NCBI GenBank assembly: GCA_016194285.1
Contig: JACQBZ010000020.1
Coordinates: forward strand, 1,994 to 65,993
From: Nitrospirota bacterium
Lineage (GTDB): Bacteria; Nitrospirota; Nitrospiria; JACQBZ01
Length of the DNA stretch: 64,000 nt
Reading direction: 5' to 3'
Part shown: piece by piece, positions 5,244 to 37,409 of the stretch
How positions within the stretch are numbered: position 1 is the stretch's first letter
Layout: each line of letters starts with the position of its first letter
The notes under the pieces: generated by a model
The model's database searches: none
What the model saw: the letters and a program-made list of their open reading frames with translations, nothing else
Told to the model about the DNA's origin: nothing
Program-made: the position numbers and the translations under genes

Positions 5244-6146
5244 ATGTTCAGGAGTCCATTACCAAGATTCGTGTTCATAACGGTAGGGTTATTGGCCTGC
5301 AACAAGTCGGCCACACCCGCCATTTCGACCCCGGATTCGACCCTGGCTCAGGTCAACGGAACACCGATTACGGTCGTCCAGTTTAATCAGAGATGGTCGC
5401 AGCTTCCCGAACCGGCCCGCGCGGCCTACGCCGGTCCAAACGGGAAAAAAGATTTCCTGAGTGAATTGATCACCCGCGAGCTGCTCCTTCAGAAGGCCCA
5501 TCAGATGAAACTGGACCAGGACAAAACCGTCGGAGAGCGCGTGGAATCCTTTAAAGAGCGGCTGTTGCTGGATACCACGCTTCATGAGCTGATCGAGAAA
5601 AAGGTCGAGGTATCGGAGGAGGAACTGACGGCCCAGTTCAACGCCCATCGAGACGCCCTTCCCCTGATCGAAGAGGCCCGGGCGAGTCACATTCTGGTCA
5701 AGACCGAATCCGAGGCCCGGGCCTTGCTGGGCCGGCTGCGCCGGGGCGCCGATTTCGCCGCCCTGGCCAAAGCCCACTCGATGGATCCCGCCACCAAGGA
5801 CAAGGGAGGCGATCTGGGCCTCTTGCGTAAAGGCCGGGTGCTTCCGGAGTTCGAGAAGGTCGTTTTCGAAATGAAGCCCGGTCAGATCAGCGACGTGGTC
5901 CGAACATCATACGGCTATCACATCATCCGCGTTCAAAGCCGGCGCACCCCAAAACCGCTCTCGGTCGACGACGTGCGGGACGAGCTCCGTGAACAAATCA
6001 TCAAAGACAAAGAAACGGCCCTGTTCGATGCGCTCGTTAAAACATTACGGGCCGAATCCAACATCGTGATTTCGGAGTCCCGGCTGGCCTCCATCGGAGA
6101 AGATGTCACAAAGAACCATGACCCCGCGTCCACGGCTCAACACTAA
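5244..6146 (+). CDS. PpiC/parvulin-type peptidyl-prolyl isomerase (lipoprotein-like)
   Basis: ARASHILVK, DFAALAKAHSMD, GGDLG, YGYHII; GGGAGG RBS before ATG 5244; TGC-TATAAT at 5208-5216. Confidence 0.85.
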   Translation: MFRSPLPRFVFITVGLLACNKSATPAISTPDSTLAQVNGTPITVVQFNQRWSQLPEPARAAYAGPNGKKDFLSELITRELLLQKAHQMKLDQDKTVGERVESFKERLLLDTTLHELIEKKVEVSEEELTAQFNAHRDALPLIEEARASHILVKTESEARALLGRLRRGADFAALAKAHSMDPATKDKGGDLGLLRKGRVLPEFEKVVFEMKPGQISDVVRTSYGYHIIRVQSRRTPKPLSVDDVRDELREQIIKDKETALFDALVKTLRAESNIVISESRLASIGEDVTKNHDPASTAQH

Positions 6147-8449: not shown

Positions 8450-10081
8450 TTACGATTTCTCACGGATAAGTTCCAAGAACAGTTCGACCAGATGAGGATC
8501 AAACTGAGTCCCGGCATTTTTCTTAAGTTCCCTTAAGGCATACTCCTTGCCGGGGGCTTTTCGATACACCCGGTCGAAGGTCATCGCATCATAAGCGTCC
8601 ACAAGGGCTACCACCCGCGCGCCCAAGGGTGTTTCTTCGCCCCGTAGCCCGTTTGGATATCCCTTTCCATCCCATCGTTCATGATCTCCCCGGACCAACG
8701 GGACAACCGGTTCCAGAAACTTGATGGGTTGGATGATCCGCGCCCCGAGGACCGGATGCTGTTTCATCACCTCATATTCTTCCGGAGTCAACTTGCCCGG
8801 CTTCTTTAAAATCGACTCCGGGATCCCGATCTTGCCGATGTCGTGGAGGATCGCCGCGTACTGAAGGACTTCCAGGTCGTTCTCCGAAAAGTCCAATCGT
8901 TTCCCGAGCATCAAGGCATGTTCCACCGTCCGATCGGAATGGCCCATGGTCTCCACGTCCTTGGTTTCCAGGGCCGAGGCCAGCGCCTTGATGGAGTCCA
9001 GGTTGGCCGTCTTTAATTGGTTTCCTTTGAATACAACCTCTTCAAACAGCCGGGCATTTTCAATGGCGCTGGCCATCTGACGAGCCACGGAATCGCACAA
9101 CCGGATTTTCTCGGGTGTGAAAGGATTCCGCTCCCAATGTCGAGCCTCGCCCAGAACCAACAGGCCCAGAAGGACACCTTTTTTTATCATGGGGCAGATT
9201 AAAAGAGACTGCAATTCCGCCAGATTTCCCGTAAAGAGCAGCCTCTCTACCGGCGAGCCGGCGGATTGGATCTCGACGCCGCGAAGCAGAAGGGGTTCTG
9301 AAGAAGTCAGGATTTCTTGGAAACATCTTGAATCGCCGGTCGCGCAGAAACGACCGATTTCAAAATCCCAATCGAGTTGTCTTTGAGGAAAAGCGGCCAT
9401 GACCATCAGGTGATGCTGTTGACGGTTGACCAAAAGAATCCGGCAGAAGGTGGCCTCCAGGCGTTGCGTGGCGATCTGTGCGGAGGTTTGAAGCAGCTCC
9501 TGAAGTTTTAGGGAGGAGGAAGTCGTCGTGGTGATCTCCAATAACAGGGACAGTTGATTGGTCCGCTGCTGGAGCTTTTCCAGATTCCGCTGTCGTTCCT
9601 CGCTGAGCTCCTTCAATTGCCGGATTCGCTCTTCCAAGTTTGCAACCAAGTTGACGCTGTGTTCTTTCAGGTAAACCTTTTCCTCTTCGGGACCCACACT
9701 TTCTTTTTGCCCTCCTAAAAAGGCTTCGACTTGAGACGCAAATGTTCGGATGTCGAGTGGCTTGGCAATGTAACCGTCGCAACCGGCCGTCAGGGTCCTC
9801 TCCCGGTCGCCCTTCATGACATTGGCGGTCAAGGCCACGATGGGAATTTTTTCCGTTCCCTTGGTGTTCTTGATTTTCGTGGCCGCGGCGTATCCGTCCA
9901 TATCCGGCAGGTTGATGTCCATCAGAATCAGGTCCGGGTGTTCGCTGCCGGCCACCTCGATTCCGGTCAGACCGTTCTCGGCCTCCAACACCTGATATCC
10001 CTTGGCCTCAAGGACCCTTCGGACCAAAAGGGTATTTTCCGGGTTGTCTTCCACGTAAAGGATCTTTCTTTTTGATTCCAT
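8450..10081 (-). CDS. Response regulator REC-GAF-HD-GYP (c-di-GMP phosphodiesterase)
   Basis: REC (ILYVEDN, LILMDINLP), coiled coil, GAF (LGLLVLG...QMASAIENARL), HDIGK, HERWDGKGYP, VDAYDAM. Confidence 0.9.
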   Translation of the reverse strand: MESKRKILYVEDNPENTLLVRRVLEAKGYQVLEAENGLTGIEVAGSEHPDLILMDINLPDMDGYAAATKIKNTKGTEKIPIVALTANVMKGDRERTLTAGCDGYIAKPLDIRTFASQVEAFLGGQKESVGPEEEKVYLKEHSVNLVANLEERIRQLKELSEERQRNLEKLQQRTNQLSLLLEITTTTSSSLKLQELLQTSAQIATQRLEATFCRILLVNRQQHHLMVMAAFPQRQLDWDFEIGRFCATGDSRCFQEILTSSEPLLLRGVEIQSAGSPVERLLFTGNLAELQSLLICPMIKKGVLLGLLVLGEARHWERNPFTPEKIRLCDSVARQMASAIENARLFEEVVFKGNQLKTANLDSIKALASALETKDVETMGHSDRTVEHALMLGKRLDFSENDLEVLQYAAILHDIGKIGIPESILKKPGKLTPEEYEVMKQHPVLGARIIQPIKFLEPVVPLVRGDHERWDGKGYPNGLRGEETPLGARVVALVDAYDAMTFDRVYRKAPGKEYALRELKKNAGTQFDPHLVELFLELIREKS

Positions 10082-18283: not shown

Positions 18284-18892
18284 TTAGTCTTTCAGGAGTT
18301 GGACGATCTTTTCCAGAAGGGCATCTCGACCCTCACCGGTCTTGGAAGAAAATGGCAGGATGATGGGGGGAGTAGCCGACCCCGGCAATGAACCTTTGAT
18401 CTTGCCGAGCGCCGATGCCAGCCGTCCTCGGGGCAGCTGATCCGACTTTGTGGCGACCAGAATACACGGAAGCGTGTAGGAGCGAATCCATGTTAACAAT
18501 TGTTGATCCAAAAGACTCGGCGGGTGACGAATATCCATCAGCACGATCAAGCCACGAAGCGCGGGACGGTGCGTGAGATAATCATTCACCAAGTCACCCC
18601 AGGCCTCCCGTTGTGCGAATGATGCGCTGGCATAGCCGTATCCGGGCAGGTCCACAAGATAAAAAGCCAACGGCCATTTGAGGCCGACGGTGACCTTGAA
18701 AAAGTTAATCAGTCGTGTTTTGCCCGGCGTGCCGCTTGTTTTGGCCAGCCCTTTTTGTTGCACCAGACAATTCAACAGCGATGACTTCCCCACGTTGGAA
18801 CGTCCCGCAAGAGCAATCTCGAGCAGTCCGTCCTTTGGACAGTCTTCCGACCTGGCACAGCTCTTGATAAATTCGGCGCTGAGAATCTTCAT
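18284..18892 (-). CDS. engB: Ribosome biogenesis GTPase YihA/YsxC
   Basis: GRSNVGKSS, GKTRLINFF, VDLPGYGY, TKSD. Confidence 0.95.
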   Translation of the reverse strand: MKILSAEFIKSCARSEDCPKDGLLEIALAGRSNVGKSSLLNCLVQQKGLAKTSGTPGKTRLINFFKVTVGLKWPLAFYLVDLPGYGYASASFAQREAWGDLVNDYLTHRPALRGLIVLMDIRHPPSLLDQQLLTWIRSYTLPCILVATKSDQLPRGRLASALGKIKGSLPGSATPPIILPFSSKTGEGRDALLEKIVQLLKD

Positions 18893-18994
18893 AGGGTATG
18901 AACTTACCAGTTCAAAGGAAGACGATCAAGAAGAATTATTCCTGTTTTCCAATCCACTCAGCGCAGGGGATACAAACATGGGGAGATCAATCCT

Positions 18995-19020
18995 CGCCCG
19001 TCCCGAAGGACGGGCGCTAC
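18995..19020 (-). repeat. GTAG REP-like hairpin with UUCG loop
   Basis: Minus strand GTAG-CGCCCGTCC-TTCG-GGACGGGCG; sits exactly where Cas3 stub 1 ends. Confidence 0.6.
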
Positions 19021-19060
19021 TTCCCTGGCTGTTTTTAGAATGGGCGGAATATTCGGCCAT
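19021..19060 (-). pseudogene. Cas3 HD-domain 5' stub 1 (MAEYSAHSKNSQG)
   Basis: Imperfect direct repeat of 19935-19973; YxAHS-x-NSxG start typical of Cas3 HD N-termini. Confidence 0.5.
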
Positions 19061-19096
19061 GTAGCTGCAAAGCAAGATTATCCCCTTTCATTCCCC

Positions 19097-19128
19097 ATAA
19101 TACCAACTCCGCGTGACAGGGCAGGTCA
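19097..19128 (-). promoter_or_regulatory. Putative WYL-regulated promoter: TGAC-N7-GTCA, 11 nt, TATTAT
   Basis: Palindrome 19114-19128, -10 at 19097-19102 with TGn extension; same spacing as 20044-20075. Confidence 0.55.
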
Positions 19129-19146
19129 AAAGATCAAAAAATGAAT

Positions 19147-19175
19147 TTGACAGAATTCTGTACATTATTTATAAT
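19147..19175 (+). promoter_or_regulatory. Sigma70 promoter of TA module 1 with operator palindrome
   Basis: TTGACA-17-TATAAT; ACAGAATTCTGT palindrome at 19150-19161. Confidence 0.8.
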
Positions 19176-19206
19176 CTCTGTTATCAAATTACCAAGGAGG
19201 TTCCCA

Positions 19207-19488
19207 ATGTCCATCTCTCCCAAAGACATCATCCCGCTGACCAAGGCCCGGGCAAAGCTCACGGAGTTGTGCGAGCAGGTCCGCCGGGAGCACGGCGAGA
19301 AGATCATCACCAAGAACGGCGAGTCCTGCGCCGCATTGATCGACGCCGACCGGCTGGACCACTACCACCGCTTGGAGCGGGAGCACGTCCATCTCACGCT
19401 TCTTGAGGAAGCGATCCGCGGAATGGAAGATGTCGCTGCCGGGAAAACCCTTTCCCTGAAAGAGTTAAAAACCCGCCATGGCCGGTAG
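19207..19488 (+). CDS. Phd/YefM-family antitoxin
   Basis: IIPLTKARAKLTEL...IITKNGESCAALI; AAGGAGG RBS before ATG 19207. Confidence 0.88.
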   Translation: MSISPKDIIPLTKARAKLTELCEQVRREHGEKIITKNGESCAALIDADRLDHYHRLEREHVHLTLLEEAIRGMEDVAAGKTLSLKELKTRHGR

Positions 19489-19849
19489 ACGGCGAACACC
19501 TGTCTTTACCGAGAATTTCAGCCTCAACCTTGATGCCCTCCGGCTCTTTCTGGAACCGGAGGGACGCGCCGCATTCGAACGCCTCCTCGACCGCCTGTTC
19601 GATGACATCGTGCCGATGCTTTGCCGACACTCTCAGTCCGGCCGGATCTTTCTCCAGCATCCGATCCGATCGAAAGAAGCCCGATCTCTATCGCGAAAGC
19701 TGAAAACCTTTCTGAAAAAAGGCGACACGCTTCGCGAGTTTGTCGTGGATGACTATCTTATGCTGTATTTGCACAGAGACCGTCAGGTGGTTTTTCTGTC
19801 CATCAAACACCACCGTCAGCTCTCCTTTGACCTGCGACGATTCTGGTAG
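19478..19849 (+). CDS. RelE/ParE-family toxin
   Basis: Overlaps antitoxin; VFTENF..NL, LREF..DDYLMLY...VVFLSIKH. Confidence 0.75.
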   Translation: MAGRRRTPVFTENFSLNLDALRLFLEPEGRAAFERLLDRLFDDIVPMLCRHSQSGRIFLQHPIRSKEARSLSRKLKTFLKKGDTLREFVVDDYLMLYLHRDRQVVFLSIKHHRQLSFDLRRFW

Positions 19850-19973
19850 TCCCGCTCGCCCGCCCCGAACTTAGCGGCAAATTCCCCCACCCGCCGGGCG
19901 ACGCTCGTTAGATGCTCGACCCGGTCGTGCTTGATCCTTGGCTGTTTTCAGAATGGGCGAAATAGTCGTTCAT
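19850..19973 (-). pseudogene. Cas3 HD-domain 5' stub 2, frameshifted
   Basis: MNDYFAHSENSQG / 1-nt shift / KHDRVEHLTSVARRVGEFAAKFGAGE; stops before the HD motif, at the stop of toxin 1. Confidence 0.65.
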
Positions 19974-20043
19974 GTCACAGTGATAATGCGGGCGACGCTG
20001 AAGTCGCGGTCAACGCAAGGCATATCCACTCCTTTCCACGGAA

Positions 20044-20075
20044 ATCTTACAATACCCTCGTGACAACGGGGGTCA
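20044..20075 (-). promoter_or_regulatory. Putative WYL-regulated promoter: TGAC-N7-GTCA, 11 nt, TAAGAT
   Basis: Palindrome 20061-20075, -10 at 20044-20049; upstream of Cas3 stub 2. Confidence 0.55.
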
Positions 20076-20099
20076 AAGTTTTTTCTCCCATCCGCTCGC

Positions 20100-20151
20100 T
20101 TGACAGCAGCTTAAGAAGCCATTATAATGGCCATTATCATAGCCATAATGG
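20100..20151 (+). promoter_or_regulatory. Sigma70 promoter of TA module 2 with operator palindromes
   Basis: TTGACA(20100)-17-TATAAT(20123); CCATTATAATGG 20119-20130 and CCATTAT-N7-ATAATGG 20131-20151. Confidence 0.8.
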
Positions 20152-20161
20152 AGACAATCTT

Positions 20162-20461
20162 ATGAAACAGGTAGACCAATTTGTATCGGTTACAGATGCC
20201 AAGAACCGCCTTCTGGATCTCATCCGAAGCCTTGCCGAGAAAGATGAGGTGCTGGCAATCACGCGCGGCGGCATCCCCGCCGCCGTCGTCCTCAGCCCCG
20301 AGCGGTACGAGGGTCTTTTGGAGACCATTGAAGTCCTCAGCGACCCCCGCTCGATGGAGTCCATTCGCCGATCGCTCAAGCAGGCCCGGAAGGGCCGCTG
20401 GCTGAGCGAGGAAGAGGTCTTCGGAAAAGAGAAGGCCCGCCTGTCCGGCCGGCAGGCATGA
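20162..20461 (+). CDS. Phd/YefM-family antitoxin
   Basis: VSVTDAKNRLLDLI...ITRGGIPAAVVLS...LLETIEVLSD; ATG 20162 downstream of promoter. Confidence 0.9.
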   Translation: MKQVDQFVSVTDAKNRLLDLIRSLAEKDEVLAITRGGIPAAVVLSPERYEGLLETIEVLSDPRSMESIRRSLKQARKGRWLSEEEVFGKEKARLSGRQA

Positions 20462-20751
20462 AGGCCTTTCGCGTCCGGTACACGCCCGAAGCGGCCTCCC
20501 TCATCCGAAAACTCCATCCCGAAATCAAGCGCCGAATCCGGGGCGGAATCAAAACGCTTCTCGAAAATCCGTTGTCGGGCCATGAGCTCCGTTTTGAGCT
20601 GTCCGGTTTTCGATCCCACCGTGTGAAGAACTATCGCATCATCTACCGACTCAATGATCCCGAGGGTTTTCTCGAAATCCTTTTCGTCGGTCAACGGCGG
20701 GACGTTTATGAAAGCCTCCGAGCCCTGTTGTTGGAAAAATCCTCCGACTGA
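20458..20751 (+). CDS. RelE/StbE-family toxin
   Basis: 4-bp overlap with antitoxin; LLENPLSGHEL...FRSHRVKNYRIIY...ILFVGQRRDVY. Confidence 0.88.
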   Translation: MKAFRVRYTPEAASLIRKLHPEIKRRIRGGIKTLLENPLSGHELRFELSGFRSHRVKNYRIIYRLNDPEGFLEILFVGQRRDVYESLRALLLEKSSD

Positions 20752-20789
20752 CTTCGCCGTCTCCGCGTTGAGCGGGAAGACCTTGCCTT

Positions 20790-21283
20790 GATCCCCTGAT
20801 ATTTCCCCAACAGTCTCTAGGCCTCGTTCTGGACCGCCTGCATCAAACTTTCCGGACGAACCACCCGGACCTTTGCGCCAAAGCCCAACACCCATGCGAG
20901 CAGTTCAGGGCAAACGGCCACCTGAAGATTCATCCGGATCCGCCCGCCTTTGAGCGGCGTGATCCGCTGGCTCGCATGCCAGGTTCGCTCACGCACCCAC
21001 CGGGCGGCCGACTTTTCAAAGACCAGCTCCACGCCCTCTGCTTCCCCCCGGAACACGTCAGGACTGAGCGCGGAGCGGCTCTTCTGGAATAAGCTGTGAA
21101 GAGAATCACCCAGGAAGGTGCCATCGAGCGGTAGTCCGGGTCAAGAACCCAAAAGGTTTTCCCGTCTTCACGCTGATCATAGATCGGAAAACCAGCGAGG
21201 CCCAATGCATCCAGGTCCCGCCGCAGTGTCCGCTGATGGCAGGCATCGTCCAGCTCGGAGGCTAAACGTTGGGTTGACAGCCC
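20790..21283 (-). pseudogene. HTH-WYL-WCX transcriptional regulator remnant
   Basis: HTH GLSTQRLASELDDACHQRTLRRDLDALGLAGFPI; frameshifted linker GTFLGDSLHSLFQKSRSALSP; WCX VELVF...WHASQ...ELLAWVLGFGAKVRVVRPESL; premature TAG then RLLGKY; no start codon, WYL core missing. Confidence 0.75.
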
Positions 21284-21311: not shown

Positions 21312-22022
21312 ATGAACGGCGATCCCGAATTCGATAAAGTCTATCGTGCCGCCCAGGAATGCTTCGAGGAGAATCGGCTGGACGAGGCGGAGCGTTTGTT
21401 TCTGAAGCTCCTGGACCGAAATACGAGAGGGTACGCGGACGTTTTTAACCTTCTGGGTTTGATCTATTCCCAGAAAGGCCTTCTGGAGCGTGCCGCACAA
21501 TATTTTGAAAAAGCCTTGGCCATTAATCCTAAATACACGGACGCCGCCCTCAGCCTCGTTGTAACGTATAACGAGCTTCAGAAGTTCGCCGAGGCCGAAC
21601 GCGTCTTCAATCAAGCGGCCAAGGTGGTCCGTTCCGAACCCACATCGCTTGATCCGTTTATTCAAGGCAAGTTGGCCAATGAGCACGGCAAGCTGGGCGA
21701 TGCCTATTATAACCTGGGCCGGTACGATCAAGCCCTTGACGAGTACCAAAAGGCCGTCAAACTCCGGCCGAATTTTGTGGATATTCTGACCAAAATCGGG
21801 ATGACCCTGAGGGAGAAGGGGGAACTGGACCCGGCCGTTGACGCTTTCAGCAAGGCCAAAGAGGCCAGCTCCAAATACGTGCCGGCCTACATTCACCTTG
21901 GAATCACTTATTACACCCAAAACCGACGGGACTTGGCCTTACAAGAATGGAAAGCCGCGCAGAAGATCGATCCCGCCAACCGCGCCGTCCAGGTTTACCT
22001 AAACTTGGCCAAAAAGCCATAG
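21312..22022 (+). CDS. Tetratricopeptide-repeat protein
   Basis: Multiple TPR motifs (ADVFNLLGLIY, LGDAYYNLGRYDQA, AYIHLGITYY). Confidence 0.88.
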   Translation: MNGDPEFDKVYRAAQECFEENRLDEAERLFLKLLDRNTRGYADVFNLLGLIYSQKGLLERAAQYFEKALAINPKYTDAALSLVVTYNELQKFAEAERVFNQAAKVVRSEPTSLDPFIQGKLANEHGKLGDAYYNLGRYDQALDEYQKAVKLRPNFVDILTKIGMTLREKGELDPAVDAFSKAKEASSKYVPAYIHLGITYYTQNRRDLALQEWKAAQKIDPANRAVQVYLNLAKKP

Positions 22023-31027: not shown

Positions 31028-32404
31028 CTACCTTGAAAACCTGTGACCGGAAGCTGCAGCGATTAATTCCTCAACCCTCCTATCGGACGAGCTGAAAGGA
31101 TCCATACAGAGGATGGTTTCTTCCCAGTAGCCATTCAGTTTGAGATAGGTCCAGTCCACCGTATAAGAACGATTCTTTTCACGGGCGAACCGGATGAAAT
31201 CTCCTCGGATCTTGGCCCGCGTGGTTTGAGGCGGCTCATTCATCGCCAACTGAATATCCTCTTCTTCGACCACTTTCTCAACCATATCCATTTTTTCCAG
31301 GACATAGTATAAGCCTCGCGACCGCTTCACATCGTGATACTGGAGGTCCATCAGCAGAATTCGAGGATCGTCCCAACCGCAGTCCTTTTTCTCCATATAG
31401 GAAACCATGAGCTCTTTTTTCATCACCCAATCGATCTGACGGGAGAGTTGCATGGGATCCTCTTCCAATTTGTTCAGGGTATTCTCCCATTTTTGAACGA
31501 TATCTTCAGTGATGGAATCGACCTCGGTCGATGCCAGGTAATCATAGGCCCGCTCCAGATAGATTCGCTGGATCTCGATCCCCGTCAGTTCCCGACCGTC
31601 CTCCAATTTGACACGCCGCTTGAGCGTCGTGTCTCTCGAAATCTCCCGAATGGCCTTCACGGGGTCCTCCAACTCGATGTTGGGAACGGTGTAGCCCTCT
31701 TCAATCATGGACAACACAACGGCGGTGACCCCAATTTTCATCAGCGTCGTAAACTCGGACATGTTCGAGTCCCCGACGATGATGTGAAGACGACGGTACT
31801 TCTCGGCATCCGCGTGGGGTTCATCCCGCGTATTGATGATGCTCCGTGACGAGGTGGTCGAAGACGAGGTTTTTTCGTGGATATGCTGTGCCCGCTGGGA
31901 AAGGAAGTAGTGCGTTTTACCGGAGAGTTTCAGGAGTTTACCGGCCCCCGCATAGATCTGGCGTGTGACAAAGAAAGGGATCAGCTGCTCCGTGACTTTC
32001 CAAAAGTCCACATCCCGCCTCATCAGGTAATTCTCGTGGCATCCATAGGTATTCCCCATCGAGTCGGTGTTGTTCTTAAAAATAAAAATTTCTCCGTTGA
32101 GCCCCTCTTCTTTGAGTCGTTCTTCCGCCAACGGCAGACAGCCCTCGACCAGGCGTTCACCCGCTTTGTCGTGGGTGACCAGATCAAAGATGTTATCGCA
32201 CTCGGGCGTGGAATATTCAGGGTGACATCCGGTATCTTGATAAAATCGGGCTCCGTTGACCAGGAAAGCATTTGAGGGCCAACTGTTCGGGATCAAACCT
32301 TCAAAGATATACCCCAGCACTTTCTCCACGGGCAGATAGACCTTGCCGTTCGGAGAAAAGATCAAACCGTATTCATTTTCGAGTCCAAAGATGCGTTGTC
32401 GCAT
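31028..32404 (-). CDS. pafA: Pup-protein ligase
   Basis: RIFGLENEYG, NGARFYQDTGCHPEYSTPEC, GCHENY, RRLHIIVGDSNM, DLQYHD. Confidence 0.95.
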   Translation of the reverse strand: MRQRIFGLENEYGLIFSPNGKVYLPVEKVLGYIFEGLIPNSWPSNAFLVNGARFYQDTGCHPEYSTPECDNIFDLVTHDKAGERLVEGCLPLAEERLKEEGLNGEIFIFKNNTDSMGNTYGCHENYLMRRDVDFWKVTEQLIPFFVTRQIYAGAGKLLKLSGKTHYFLSQRAQHIHEKTSSSTTSSRSIINTRDEPHADAEKYRRLHIIVGDSNMSEFTTLMKIGVTAVVLSMIEEGYTVPNIELEDPVKAIREISRDTTLKRRVKLEDGRELTGIEIQRIYLERAYDYLASTEVDSITEDIVQKWENTLNKLEEDPMQLSRQIDWVMKKELMVSYMEKKDCGWDDPRILLMDLQYHDVKRSRGLYYVLEKMDMVEKVVEEEDIQLAMNEPPQTTRAKIRGDFIRFAREKNRSYTVDWTYLKLNGYWEETILCMDPFSSSDRRVEELIAAASGHRFSR

Positions 32405-34139: not shown

Positions 34140-35618
34140 TTACATGCTCAGGTGGCCCAAGACTTCCTCGATGGACTGGGCCGATTCCAACAACGTCCGG
34201 GTCAGGCTTTCTGTTCCGCGAAACGGTTCCATTAAGGGGACCTTCTTGATGGTGGTGTTTCCGACATCAAAAAGGATCGAGCTCCAGCTGGCCGCGTACA
34301 CTTCCTTGGGAAACTTTTTCAGGCAACTCCCTCGGAAGTAGGCCCGCGTGTCCGTCGGCGGATTCTGTTCGGCCTGCTCAATCTCCCGGTCCGTGGTAAG
34401 GCGGTCCACGTACTGGTCTTTTTCCAGGGCGGTGTACAGCCCCTTTTCAGGGCGAAGGTCGTGATACTGGAGATCCATCATCGCCAGACGCGAATCTCCC
34501 CATCCGCATTTTTTCCGTTCCATATACGATTGAATCAGTTTCAGTTTGATCACCCAATCAATCTGTCGGGAAAGCTGCATGGGATCTTCTTCAAGCCGAT
34601 CCAGGACCTCTTCCCACTTCTTCAAGACATCCCGCGTCGTTTGATCCAGCTCATGTTTCTCAAAGAAACGATGGGCCGCTTCAAGATAGAGCCGTTGAAC
34701 TTCAATGGCCGTGAATTTCCGCCCATCGGACAAACGAATCGGCGCCTTTAAATCGATATCCCGCGACACTTCTTTGATGGAGCGAACCGGATCCTCCAGT
34801 TCGAGTTCCGGCAACGGCCAGTTCTCTTCGATCAGGGTCAGCAAAATGGCCGTCGCCCCGAGTTTGATATAGGTGGAGTATTCCGCCATGTTCGCGTCTC
34901 CGACGATGACGTGCAGGCGGCGATATTTAACGGCATCGGCATGGGGCTCATCTCGCGTGTTGATAATCGGCCGTTTCACCATGGTATTGAGATCCACAAC
35001 GGTTTCGAAAAAATCCGCTCGCTGGGATATCTGGTACGACACCGGCGGCATTCGATTCTCGGCGCCGACCTTTCCGGATCCGGCATAAATCTGCCGGGTC
35101 ACAAAAAAGGGAATTAAATGCTTCATCAGCGATTCAAAAGGCACCGTCCGATCGACCAGATAGTTTTCATGATAACCGTAACTGTTGCCTTTCCCATCGG
35201 TGTTGTTGCGATAGAGAACAATCTTGTCCTGCTCCTTAATCCGGCTGGCGTGCTCACAGCACTGACTCAGGATTCGATCACCGGCCTTCTCGTAGATCAA
35301 CACGTCCCGAGGATTGGTGCATTCAGGAGTCGAATACTCGGGATGGGCCCCGTCCACGTACAGGCGGCCTCCATTGGCCAACACCTTATTGAGAAGACGG
35401 TTATAGTCCGGGCCGGGTCGCTCCCGTTCTCCCTCGATCTCAAATCCCCGGACATCCAACAAGGGGTTCTCGTGTTCATAATCCCACAGGACACGAGTCG
35501 AAGGAAGATAAGGATAGTTATTGATCAACAGCAGGGAGGTGGAAACAGGATCAAGTGCTTCTGGATTATGTGTCGCAATACCGAATTCGGTTTCTGTCCC
35601 AAGGATGCGTTTGATCAT
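34140..35618 (-). CDS. dop: Depupylase/deamidase
   Basis: RILGTETEFGI, NGGRLYVDGAHPEYSTPEC, NNTDGKGNSYGYHENY, TRAYFRG. Confidence 0.93.
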   Translation of the reverse strand: MIKRILGTETEFGIATHNPEALDPVSTSLLLINNYPYLPSTRVLWDYEHENPLLDVRGFEIEGERERPGPDYNRLLNKVLANGGRLYVDGAHPEYSTPECTNPRDVLIYEKAGDRILSQCCEHASRIKEQDKIVLYRNNTDGKGNSYGYHENYLVDRTVPFESLMKHLIPFFVTRQIYAGSGKVGAENRMPPVSYQISQRADFFETVVDLNTMVKRPIINTRDEPHADAVKYRRLHVIVGDANMAEYSTYIKLGATAILLTLIEENWPLPELELEDPVRSIKEVSRDIDLKAPIRLSDGRKFTAIEVQRLYLEAAHRFFEKHELDQTTRDVLKKWEEVLDRLEEDPMQLSRQIDWVIKLKLIQSYMERKKCGWGDSRLAMMDLQYHDLRPEKGLYTALEKDQYVDRLTTDREIEQAEQNPPTDTRAYFRGSCLKKFPKEVYAASWSSILFDVGNTTIKKVPLMEPFRGTESLTRTLLESAQSIEEVLGHLSM

Positions 35619-35639: not shown

Positions 35640-37409
35640 TCAGAGGTAGTGGCCCGTTGAGATCGTCTCGATCTGTCTCGGTTCATTCTTCTTGGCTCCC
35701 ATGGTTCGAACATGGACGATCTTCTCACCCTTTCTCCCGGCAATCTTGGCCCAATCATCCGGCTGTGTGGTATTGGGCAGGTCTTCATGCTCTTTGAATT
35801 CATCCCGCATCCCTTGCAGAAGATCATCGCCCCGAACCCCGACACGGCCCGTCGCGATGGTACGCTTGATGGCGTATTTCTTCGCACGGGAAACAACCCC
35901 TTCGATCAGTGCTCCGCTGACGAAATCCTTAAAGTAGAGCATCTCCTTTTCGCTATTGGCATAGGTGACTTCCAGAAACTTGTTCTCTTCGCTCTGGCTG
36001 TACATCTGATCCACCGTTTGTTGGATCAACCGGTCGATCGCAACCGCCGTGTTTCCGCCGTCTTTGGCCAGTTCATCCGCATCGTACGGCAAATCAAGCA
36101 ACAAGTATTTCGAAAAAACCGCCTTCGCGGCCCGCTTGTCGGGGCGATCGATGCGGATCTTCACGTCCAGCCGACCCGGCCGGAGAATCGCGGGATCAAT
36201 CAAGTCCTGCCGGTTGCTGGCGCCAATCACGATCACATTCCGGAGGCGCTCGACGCCATCGATCTCGGAAAGGAACTGCGGCACAATCGTGGATTCGATG
36301 TCGGACGAGATACCGGTGCCTCGTGTCCGGAAGAGGGCATCCATCTCGTCGAAAAAGACGATCACCGGCATCCCTTCTTCCGCTTTTTCCTTGGCCTTTT
36401 TAAACACCTCGCGGATTTGACGTTCGCTTTCGCCCACATACTTGTTCAGGAGTTCCGGGCCCTTCACGTGCAGGAAAAAGCTGCGCACATCCTTTCCCGT
36501 CATATGGGCCAGCTTTTTGGCGATCGAGTTGGCCACGGCCTTCGCAATCAATGTTTTCCCGCAACCGGGAGGCCCGTACAGGAGAATGCCCTTTGGAGGA
36601 AGCAGCTTATGCTGGGCGAAGAGATCGGGATGCAAAAACGGCAGCTCGACGGCATCCTTGATCGATTCGATCTGCTCTTCCAGTCCGCCGATATTATCGT
36701 AGCTGACGTCCGGCACCTCTTCCAGCACCAATTCGCCCACTTCCGACTTGGGGAGTTTTTCGAGTAAATAACCGGATCGCGCATCCAAGAGAAGATCATC
36801 CCCGACGCTGAGTTTCTCGTGAAGAAGCGGCTCGGCCAATTCGGCCACCCGTTCTTCATCGGCATGGAGCGTCACGATGGCGCGCTTATTGCCGATGAGG
36901 TCTTTCAGACGCACGACTTCACCCTGACCATCAAATCCCTTCACCTCAACCACATTCAGAGCCTCGTTGAGGACCAGTTCCTGACCCTTTCGCAGATCCT
37001 TGCTTTTGATCGACGGATGAAGATTGACCTTCATCTTGCGTCCGGAGACGTAGACGTTGATGGTGCCGTCCTCATTTCCACTGGAAAAGATGCCGTAGCT
37101 GGAGGGCGGCGCGGTCAACTTTTCCACTTCCACCCGCAAGGCCTCAATCTGAGATTTGGCCTCGTGCAGCGTCGCGGCTAACTTTTCATTCTGTTTGTGG
37201 GCTTGTTCGAGCTGCGATCGGGAAAGGCGCAGTTGACGCAGCTCTTCCTCCATCGACCGGACCTGGACGTGCAGTTTATCAAGTTCTCGCTCGTATTCTT
37301 CGACGTGCTTATTCATGTCAGGCTCGTTCTCCGACAACCGATCCGTGAGTCGCCTCACGGTATTACGCAAGGAGTGAAACCTTCCAGAGCCTTTTTTGGT
37401 TTCCCCCAT
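35640..37409 (-). CDS. arc: Proteasome ATPase ARC/Mpa
   Basis: N-terminal coiled coil, OB domains, [24 protein letters not shown]-terminal GHYL. Confidence 0.95.

Follow-up and report, generated by a model that had tools for sequence, protein, structure and literature searches.

Two cas3 remnants are preceded by the same promoter/operator module

The activation of cas operons during infection is poorly understood. A stretch of 64,000 nucleotides from a Nitrospirota bacterium (assembly GCA_016194285.1, genome G000 in what follows; contig JACQBZ010000020.1, positions 1,994 to 65,993; hereafter the window) raises the question of which regulator governed a type I-C CRISPR-Cas system that has decayed around its promoters. 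A preliminary description of this DNA had reported the pattern TGAC-N7-GTCA, followed after 11 nt by a -10 box, twice on the minus strand, and had proposed that cas3 was switched on there by an activator of the WYL family that senses single-stranded DNA (ssDNA). We argue here that both sites are likely to be relic promoters of the cas operon of a type I-C locus, under a helix-turn-helix (HTH)-WYL-WCX regulator encoded just upstream.

The reported pattern is borne out by the sequence. Copy 1 (19097-19129, minus strand) reads TTGACC (19129-19124)-tgccct-GTCAC (19117-19113)-gcggagttgg-TATTAT (19102-19097), and copy 2 (20044-20076, minus strand) reads TTGACC (20076-20071)-cccgtt-GTCAC (20064-20060)-gagggtattg-TAAGAT (20049-20044); written as TGAC-N7-GTCA, 11 nt and a -10 box, both show the same pattern as TGTCAC-N10-TAnnnT. 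Both take their place in a single alignment of the module, copy 1 in register with 25 other instances. Each copy lies upstream of one 5' stub of cas3, and the two are a diverged duplication, with 77% identity over the 22 nt of the motif block and 85% over the 41 nt that contain the cas3 start. The N7 spacers differ between the copies.

The preliminary description had also suggested a genome-wide scan, and this returned no enrichment. The bare word TGAC-N7-GTCA occurs 51 times in the 2.3 Mb of G000, no more often than expected by chance, and TGTCAC-N10-TAnnnT five times, no more often than with other spacings; the extended form CGTGAC-N7-GTCAAA is confined to these two sites in G000. No enrichment near DNA-repair genes was noticed in G000, the genomic context of the remaining matches not having been annotated. 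What makes the motif more than a chance word is where it recurs, namely at the ends of WYL genes and upstream of related type I-C loci.

The module recurs upstream of type I-C loci and behind WYL genes

All eight type I-C loci of this repeat family that were examined have the module upstream (G009, G011, G035, G084, G161, G166, G214 and G380), and three of these genomes (G009, G011 and G035) hold intact I-C operons with the same CRISPR repeat and the module. The arrangement in G035 runs from an intact WYL-WCX gene through GGGACC-tcggat-GTCAC and a small open reading frame (ORF) to cas3-cas5d-csd1-cas7-cas4-cas1-cas2 and an array. On contig C23 of G011, a WYL remnant is followed by TTGACC-tcggat-GTCAA-N10-TAAAAT about 50 nt before cas5, and in G009 the module lies upstream of the I-C locus, with later insertions. 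G214, G084, G161, G166 and G380 have GTGACC-N6-GTCAC-N10-TAGnnT situated 0.35-4.8 kb upstream of cas3. The module was not found at two cas3 loci of another family (G130 and G167), both without this repeat.

The association with WYL genes also exists independently of CRISPR. Intact WYL-WCX genes on contig C59 of G011 and in G174 have the module 20-40 nt past their stop codon (a strict-pattern match in G174 at C8:59994 was rejected, since it lies inside an ORF and is probably due to chance; the actual module there comes right after the WYL stop codon). To obtain an unbiased sample, we analysed the 551 nt located 3' of 20 further WYL genes in Nitrospiria. The pattern GAC-N7-GTC-N13-A-N3-T was present in the orientation of the gene in 12 of these 20 regions, and the reversed-pattern control in one of 20. 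Across 401 genomes, the strict pattern gave 17 matches against two in the control. The consensus of the 26 aligned instances is TGTGACC-TnGGnT-GTCAC-GCnnCnGTGn-TAGnnT; conservation goes beyond the bases that the search pattern demanded, to the T before GAC, to TGTCAC and to the TAG of the -10 box, while the spacers vary.

In four sampled loci, the module is followed by defence-like genes and not by repair genes. They encode a Cas3-like helicase-HD protein of 1015 aa, a DnaG-like protein, DEAD/ResIII helicases, and a VWA protein ahead of an RNaseH-like SF1 helicase; a WapI-like protein is also among the defence-like products downstream of the module. The WYL link of the preliminary description holds up well, as does the observation that prompted it: in relatives, the association of the module with WYL-WCX genes and with type I-C cas operons is tight. 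These data provide a concrete promoter/operator module of 33 bp together with intact regulator-target pairs (G035, G011:C59, G137 and G174).

Relic copies without cas genes exist in two other genomes: in G005, beside the orthologue of one of the toxin-antitoxin (TA) modules of the window (TA module 1) and next to rplM, and in G025, between cysK and uppS. An exact-pattern scan for the block specific to the relics (GTCAC...ATTTCCGTGGAAAGG) returned only G005 and G025 from public genome contigs and no match from public metagenome contigs. We take this block to be lineage-specific sequence of the 5' untranslated region, outside the general module.

The pseudogene of a PafBC/DriD-like WYL regulator lies upstream in the window

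We searched the window by tblastn with P0001, the intact 328-aa HTH-WYL-WCX protein of G035, and located a WYL-regulator pseudogene at 20817-21283 on the minus strand. Its WCX part (21056-20820) is 48% identical to P0001 (E 5e-20) and its HTH part (~21283-21130) 35% identical (E 1.6e-11); the WYL and three-helix-bundle (3HB) domains have been lost to an internal deletion, and the gene also lacks its first ~25 codons. The solved structures nearest to P0001 are PafBC (6sj9, E 1.4e-19) and then DriD (8tp8 and 9pfq, aligned over the full length, E 1e-15). No structure of CapW or BrxR matches P0001 at E<0.01, which leaves this regulator outside the CapW/BrxR clade. A candidate cognate HTH-WYL-WCX regulator of the PafBC/DriD clade is thus represented by a pseudogene in the window and by intact genes beside the module in relatives.

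The only WYL-domain gene in the assembly lies elsewhere (G000:C46:1190-1963, locus L001) and encodes an HTH-WYL protein of 235 aa without WCX domain, just 29% identical to the cas-linked regulator; an RTxxRD motif in the recognition helix is common to P0001, the window pseudogene and this C46 protein. Overlapping the stop codon of the C46 gene is the site cTGAC-aggccttt-GTCAC-cgcgcccatg-TATTAT, one of the five TGTCAC-N10-TAnnnT matches, with half-sites spaced by N8, not N7, and followed by DUF1330, TfoX_N and glyoxalase genes. No WYL gene was found in the same-genus genomes G001 and G002. A second palindrome, TTTGAC-atgcctgg-GTCAAA, lies about 100 nt downstream of the G025 relic (L010, G025:C52, 5340-5360, minus strand) and has an N8 spacer like the C46 site.

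The two modules belong to a ruined CRISPR-Cas island

The pseudogene and both modules are contained in an insert of 2.3 kb (~18946-21272), whose boundaries were set by comparing G001 with the window. The insert separates engB (18284-18892, minus strand) on its left from a tetratricopeptide repeat (TPR) gene (21312-22022, plus strand) on its right, and it is absent from G001 and G002 (same genus) and from G006 (same family), where the gap between engB and the TPR gene measures 80-107 bp. Read in the cas direction, from right to left, it consists of the WYL pseudogene, TA module 2, module 2, cas3 stub 2, TA module 1, module 1, cas3 stub 1 and a solo CRISPR repeat. This order is that of the ruin of an island made of a WYL gene and a type I-C CRISPR-Cas system.

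Firstly, cas3 stub 1 (19022-19060, minus strand; MAEYSAHSKNSQG) retains 13 codons and is joined, 1 nt after codon 13, to the solo repeat GTAGCGCCCGTCCTTCGGGACGGGCGAGGATTGAT (18985-19020, minus strand), which matches CRISPR-DR9 of Rfam (39.8 bits, E 4.5e-7); no other RNA family was found in the Rfam search. Exact or near-exact copies of the repeat form arrays with a period of 71-72 nt in 39 of the 401 Nitrospiria genomes. In G000 the copy in the window is the sole one. The idea that the hairpin at 18985-19020 is a by-product of the deletion was ruled out by these arrays and by the Rfam match, which identify a genuine CRISPR repeat. The fusion of codon 13 to the repeat implies a deletion reaching from that codon as far as the final repeat of the array. 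The repeat also occurs singly in L030 (G002:C64, 8229-8262), after a gene for a four-helix-bundle (S23-IVP-like) protein, and in L029 (G003:C52, 6661-6688), after the orthologue of TA module 2; the reduction of arrays to one repeat seems to be frequent in this family.

Secondly, cas3 stub 2 (19850-19973, minus strand) retains about 40 codons (MNDYFAHSENSQG, one frameshift, then KHDRVEHLTSVARRVGEFAAKFGAGERDYQ) and ends at the stop codon of the toxin gene of TA module 1 (ParE1). Intact Cas3 proteins of 730-783 aa in Nitrospiria share 53-60% identity with it at their N-termini. A partial 'repeat' within stub 2 (19855-19869) was discarded as mere cas3 coding sequence (FGAG), as found in the cas3 gene of G009. 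Ahead of stub 2, within 19970-20034 on the minus strand, a Shine-Dalgarno sequence AAGGAG (20034-20029) precedes an upstream ORF of 17 codons (MPCVDRDFSVARIITVT, 20023-19970), which overlaps the cas3 ATG as ATGA and could encode a leader peptide that belonged to the lost cas3. A similar small ORF, MMLCVDHDVSVALITWAE, occurs in the G025 relic (L010, G025:C52, 5393-5449, minus strand). The two ORFs, of 17-18 codons, both come after the conserved block ATTTCCGTGGAAAGGAG, which is common to the window, G005 and G025.

Thirdly, nothing more of the system was recovered. The assembly, 88.6% complete, yielded no Cas3_HD match above the cut-off and no intact cas3, so that of the cas3 placed downstream by the preliminary description only the starts, as two 5' stubs, are there. 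The window likewise lacks the combination of Cas3, Cas5d, Cas8c (Csd1) and Cas7 that characterizes type I-C, the cas3 stubs being all that is left, and it contains no array of the matching repeat family apart from the solo repeat. As judged from the sequence, deletion has left a single repeat of the array and of the remainder of the cas operon, and the system is dead in G000; 'was switched on' can therefore refer only to an ancestor. What the window documents is the decay of a CRISPR-Cas island in which TA modules and promoter relics survive.

The module shares its geometry with the promoters of PafBC and DriD

The published consensus of PafBC promoters is tGTCgg(N10)tA(N3)T; these promoters lack a -35, and their GTC triplet falls at -23 to -28 (PMC8635444). 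The site bound by DriD, ATACGAC(N7)GTCGTAT, lies over the -35 position and keeps a constant spacing to the -10 (PMC13004042). Both sequences had been given correctly in the preliminary description. The TGTC word of the module and its N10 spacing to a TAnnnT -10 box are identical to those of the mycobacterial PafBC promoters, which work by 'sigma adaptation'. The module seems to lack a functional -35 at the canonical 16-18 nt, although copy 2 and the extended -10 of many instances complicate this point (see below), and among solved structures PafBC is the best match of the associated HTH-WYL-WCX regulator. Unlike the PafBC site, of which a heterodimer reads one half-site, the module is a full palindrome with two half-sites, which fits a homodimer. 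In addition, its targets are CRISPR-Cas and defence-like genes, whereas PafBC controls a DNA-repair regulon, and its hosts are Nitrospirota, not Actinobacteria.

The likeness to DriD of Caulobacter, a homodimeric HTH-3HB-WYL-WCX protein to which P0001 aligns over its full length, concerns the GAC-N7-GTC core, the location of the site over the would-be -35 and, by count, the proximal GTC 12 nt before the -10 box. The outer bases of the half-sites differ (GTGAC in the module, ATACGAC in DriD), and so does the setting: the regulator gene of the module is usually immediately upstream of its target and co-directional with it, and the regulon looks defence-related.

The CapW and BrxR regulators of CBASS, BREX and other defence islands are likewise WYL proteins encoded next to defence genes, with palindromes of ~20 bp, and their family senses ssDNA. 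They nevertheless form a separate clade with an RWHVR motif, undetected by sequence from P0001, and the published CapW site is unrelated in sequence to the module. CapW and BrxR control their own genes, through an operator that lies in front of these. An operator in the regulator's own promoter was not found here, upstream regions not having been surveyed systematically; the module follows the WYL stop codon in G035, G011:C59, G174 and G000:C46. WYL genes have been known beside CRISPR-Cas loci since 2014 (Makarova et al. 2014, PMC4012209), and the position of the gene at the border of a type I cas operon recalls sll7009 of the Synechocystis type I-D system, which has been described as a negative regulator. 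Such neighbourhoods, and the control of defence systems by ssDNA-sensing WYL proteins (CapW, BrxR), are thus already known. The literature searched contained no operator or promoter architecture defined for a CRISPR-linked WYL regulator, nor a PafBC/DriD-type promoter on a cas operon.

The comparison suggests how the promoters may have worked. A dimer of the regulator would bind the palindrome (G/T)TGAC-N7-GTCAC and cover about -38 to -22, so that the promoter-proximal GTC triplet would lie 12 nt upstream of the TAnnnT -10 box, at the place of the '-26 element' of PafBC promoters and, by count, of the DriD site. Such a triplet is indeed present ~12 nt upstream of the -10 box in both copies of the window and in the other aligned instances, within a palindrome that overlaps the -35 position. 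On sensing its ligand, probably ssDNA, the protein would then help RNA polymerase at a promoter that seems to have no properly spaced -35: the distal hexamer, TTGACC or GTGACC, stands 21 nt from the conserved -10, which is too far for a -35. The shared core and geometry, with a regulator closest to PafBC and DriD, favour a homodimer that activates as these proteins do. We therefore put forward, tentatively, that a PafBC/DriD-like WYL activator senses ssDNA and turns on I-C CRISPR-Cas and defence-like genes in Nitrospirota through GTGAC-N7-GTCAC at -26/-37. The prediction is that these promoters work like those of PafBC and DriD; if true, CRISPR interference would be inducible by damage or infection through sigma adaptation.

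Activation, repression and other readings of the sites

Several observations weigh against this proposal. The 12 nt from GTC to the CAAnnn -10 box of DriD are our own count from the promoter sequences in the Methods of PMC13004042, not a statement of its authors. Many of the 26 instances are related by descent and therefore do not represent 26 independent events. No WYL gene adjoins the I-C module of G214 and of other Nitrospira genomes, where such regulation would need to act in trans. Most instances carry a TG one base before the -10 (TGnTAGnnT), and copy 2 also holds a mediocre conventional promoter, TTGACC-16-TATTGT, with 9 of 12 consensus matches. An extended -10 can function without a -35. 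The activator would accordingly not be required, which weakens a reading in terms of activation only. Of the claim that an ssDNA-sensing WYL activator switched on cas3, the part that stands is therefore that of relic cas3 promoters beside a WYL pseudogene, and the part that is weakened is activation as the sole mode. Finally, the position of the site would suit a repressor too, and the characterised defence-linked WYL regulators CapW, BrxR and sll7009 are repressors (PMC11662680, PMC11237760).

Repression by the same regulator family at the same site is hence the alternative that survives best. The WYL protein would cover -38 to -22, block the extended -10 and leave the DNA upon binding ssDNA, as in the derepression of CapW and BrxR. 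Besides the extended -10 TGnTAGnnT of most instances, this would account for the defence-like genes downstream (Cas3, helicases, a primase-like protein, VWA and WapI-like proteins), and known defence-associated WYL regulators do release DNA on binding ssDNA (PMC11662680). We nevertheless consider it unlikely. The regulator is nearest to PafBC and DriD, with no detectable match to a CapW or BrxR structure, the operator follows the regulator gene instead of preceding it, the two activator systems have precisely this spacing to the -10, and in the relic copies (window, G005 and G025) the TG directly abuts the -10, without the intervening base of TGn. Control of the cas promoter by a WYL protein appears probable; given such control, we lean towards activation, and repression seems rather improbable.

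A different possibility is that the relic promoters have been co-opted, that of copy 2 (P2) running antisense into TA module 1 and that of copy 1 (P1) through the solo repeat into engB, perhaps under the C46 WYL protein. The orientations permit this, P2 pointing at the 3' end of ParE1 and P1 running the same way as engB, ~205 nt upstream of it; in addition, relics persist without cas genes in three genomes, and the C46 promoter has the same half-sites. The C46 site, however, is spaced by N8 and not N7, its protein shares only 29% identity with the cas-linked regulator and lacks the WCX domain, and the persistence of the relics is explicable by recent decay or transfer, which makes co-option quite improbable.

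Still less credible is that these are ordinary sigma-70 promoters, with TTGACC as the -35 box and an incidental palindrome that serves no dedicated regulator. TTGACC is near consensus for a -35 and the TTGACC-16-TATTGT of copy 2 scores 9/12, yet conservation is lacking at this alternative -10 (GCnnCn in the consensus, GTTGGT in copy 1), GTGACC stands in place of TTGACC in most instances, 21 nt separate TTGACC from the conserved -10, and the link to WYL genes (12/20 versus 1/20) would be left unexplained. The last alternative, that the palindrome belongs to the TA modules as an operator of the Phd antitoxin or an upstream element of the TA promoters, could invoke the window and G005, where the motif precedes the TA -35 box by 20-25 nt, but is already contradicted by the comparative data, since the two TA modules have no detectable similarity and yet stand beside the same motif, no TA module lies near more than 20 of the instances, a complete motif is missing from the TA orthologues of G003 and G006, and TA module 2 has palindromes of its own over its -10.

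Toxin-antitoxin modules and other features

Directly upstream of each promoter/operator module lies one Phd/ParE TA module, unrelated to the other. TA module 1 (19207-19849, plus strand) comprises a Phd/YefM antitoxin (19207-19488) and a ParE-like toxin (19478-19849), assigned by Pfam (PF02604 and PF05016), and its DNA is 89% identical to G005:C79 and G006:C96. TA module 2 (20162-20751, plus strand), also identified with Pfam, comprises a Phd/YefM antitoxin (20162-20461) and a ParE toxin (20458-20751), and its DNA is 75% identical to G003:C52. BLASTP gave no alignment between the two modules. Each is preceded on the plus strand by a sigma-70 promoter of perfect consensus (TTGACA-17-TATAAT, 12/12 matches), at 19147-19175 for TA module 1, divergent from promoter/operator module 1, and at 20100-20128 for TA module 2. 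A small PF02604 antitoxin overlapping a toxin of the PF05016 ParE/RelE fold, behind a strong promoter, is the organization of a type II Phd/ParE TA system.

The 17 nt after the ParE1 stop codon (19850-19866), which are part of cas3 stub 2, are retained after the orthologues of TA module 1 in L011 (G005, 2893-2909) and L031 (G006, ~483-499). The junction between cas3 codon ~38 and ParE1 is therefore older than these genomes, or the block moved as a unit. A run of N is present in L011 (G005:C79, 3201-3299), just downstream of the orthologue. In L012 (G004:C115, 4617-5290), a Phd/RelE-type TA module diverges from what remains of cas3 codons ~14-27 (41 nt with 88% identity to stub 2), with hsdM and dnaE as neighbours; here, for the third time, a TA module has outlived the cas3 gene whose scar it adjoins. 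A terminator-like hairpin with a T-run on the plus strand (20054-20083), ~200 nt after ParE1 and over motif 2, was set aside, as it is of chance frequency and is not conserved in copy 1.

Further small genes lie between module and cas3 in relatives. The small ORF between the WYL-type promoter and cas3 is found in L047 (G035, 9321-9686, minus strand) and in L026 (G214, ~5411-5876). Both versions are rich in short Asn-Pro repeats (NPxN, NPY, NPF), and that of G035, the product scanned, has a signal-peptide-like start and no Pfam match. In L043 (G009:C6, 4560-6900), the 5' end of cas3 is cut by an inserted gene for an S23-IVP-like four-helix bundle, flanked by duplicated blocks of ~300 nt full of 'ttgaacgtttt / tttaaac' words, and two small minus-strand ORFs (5400-6048) lie between the module and cas3.

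Elsewhere in the window, the Pup-proteasome locus without pafBC that had been noted was confirmed: it extends over 31-37.4 kb, contains no WYL or pafBC gene, and includes arc (35640-37409) and two genes of the Pup-ligase family (34140-35618 and 31028-32404).

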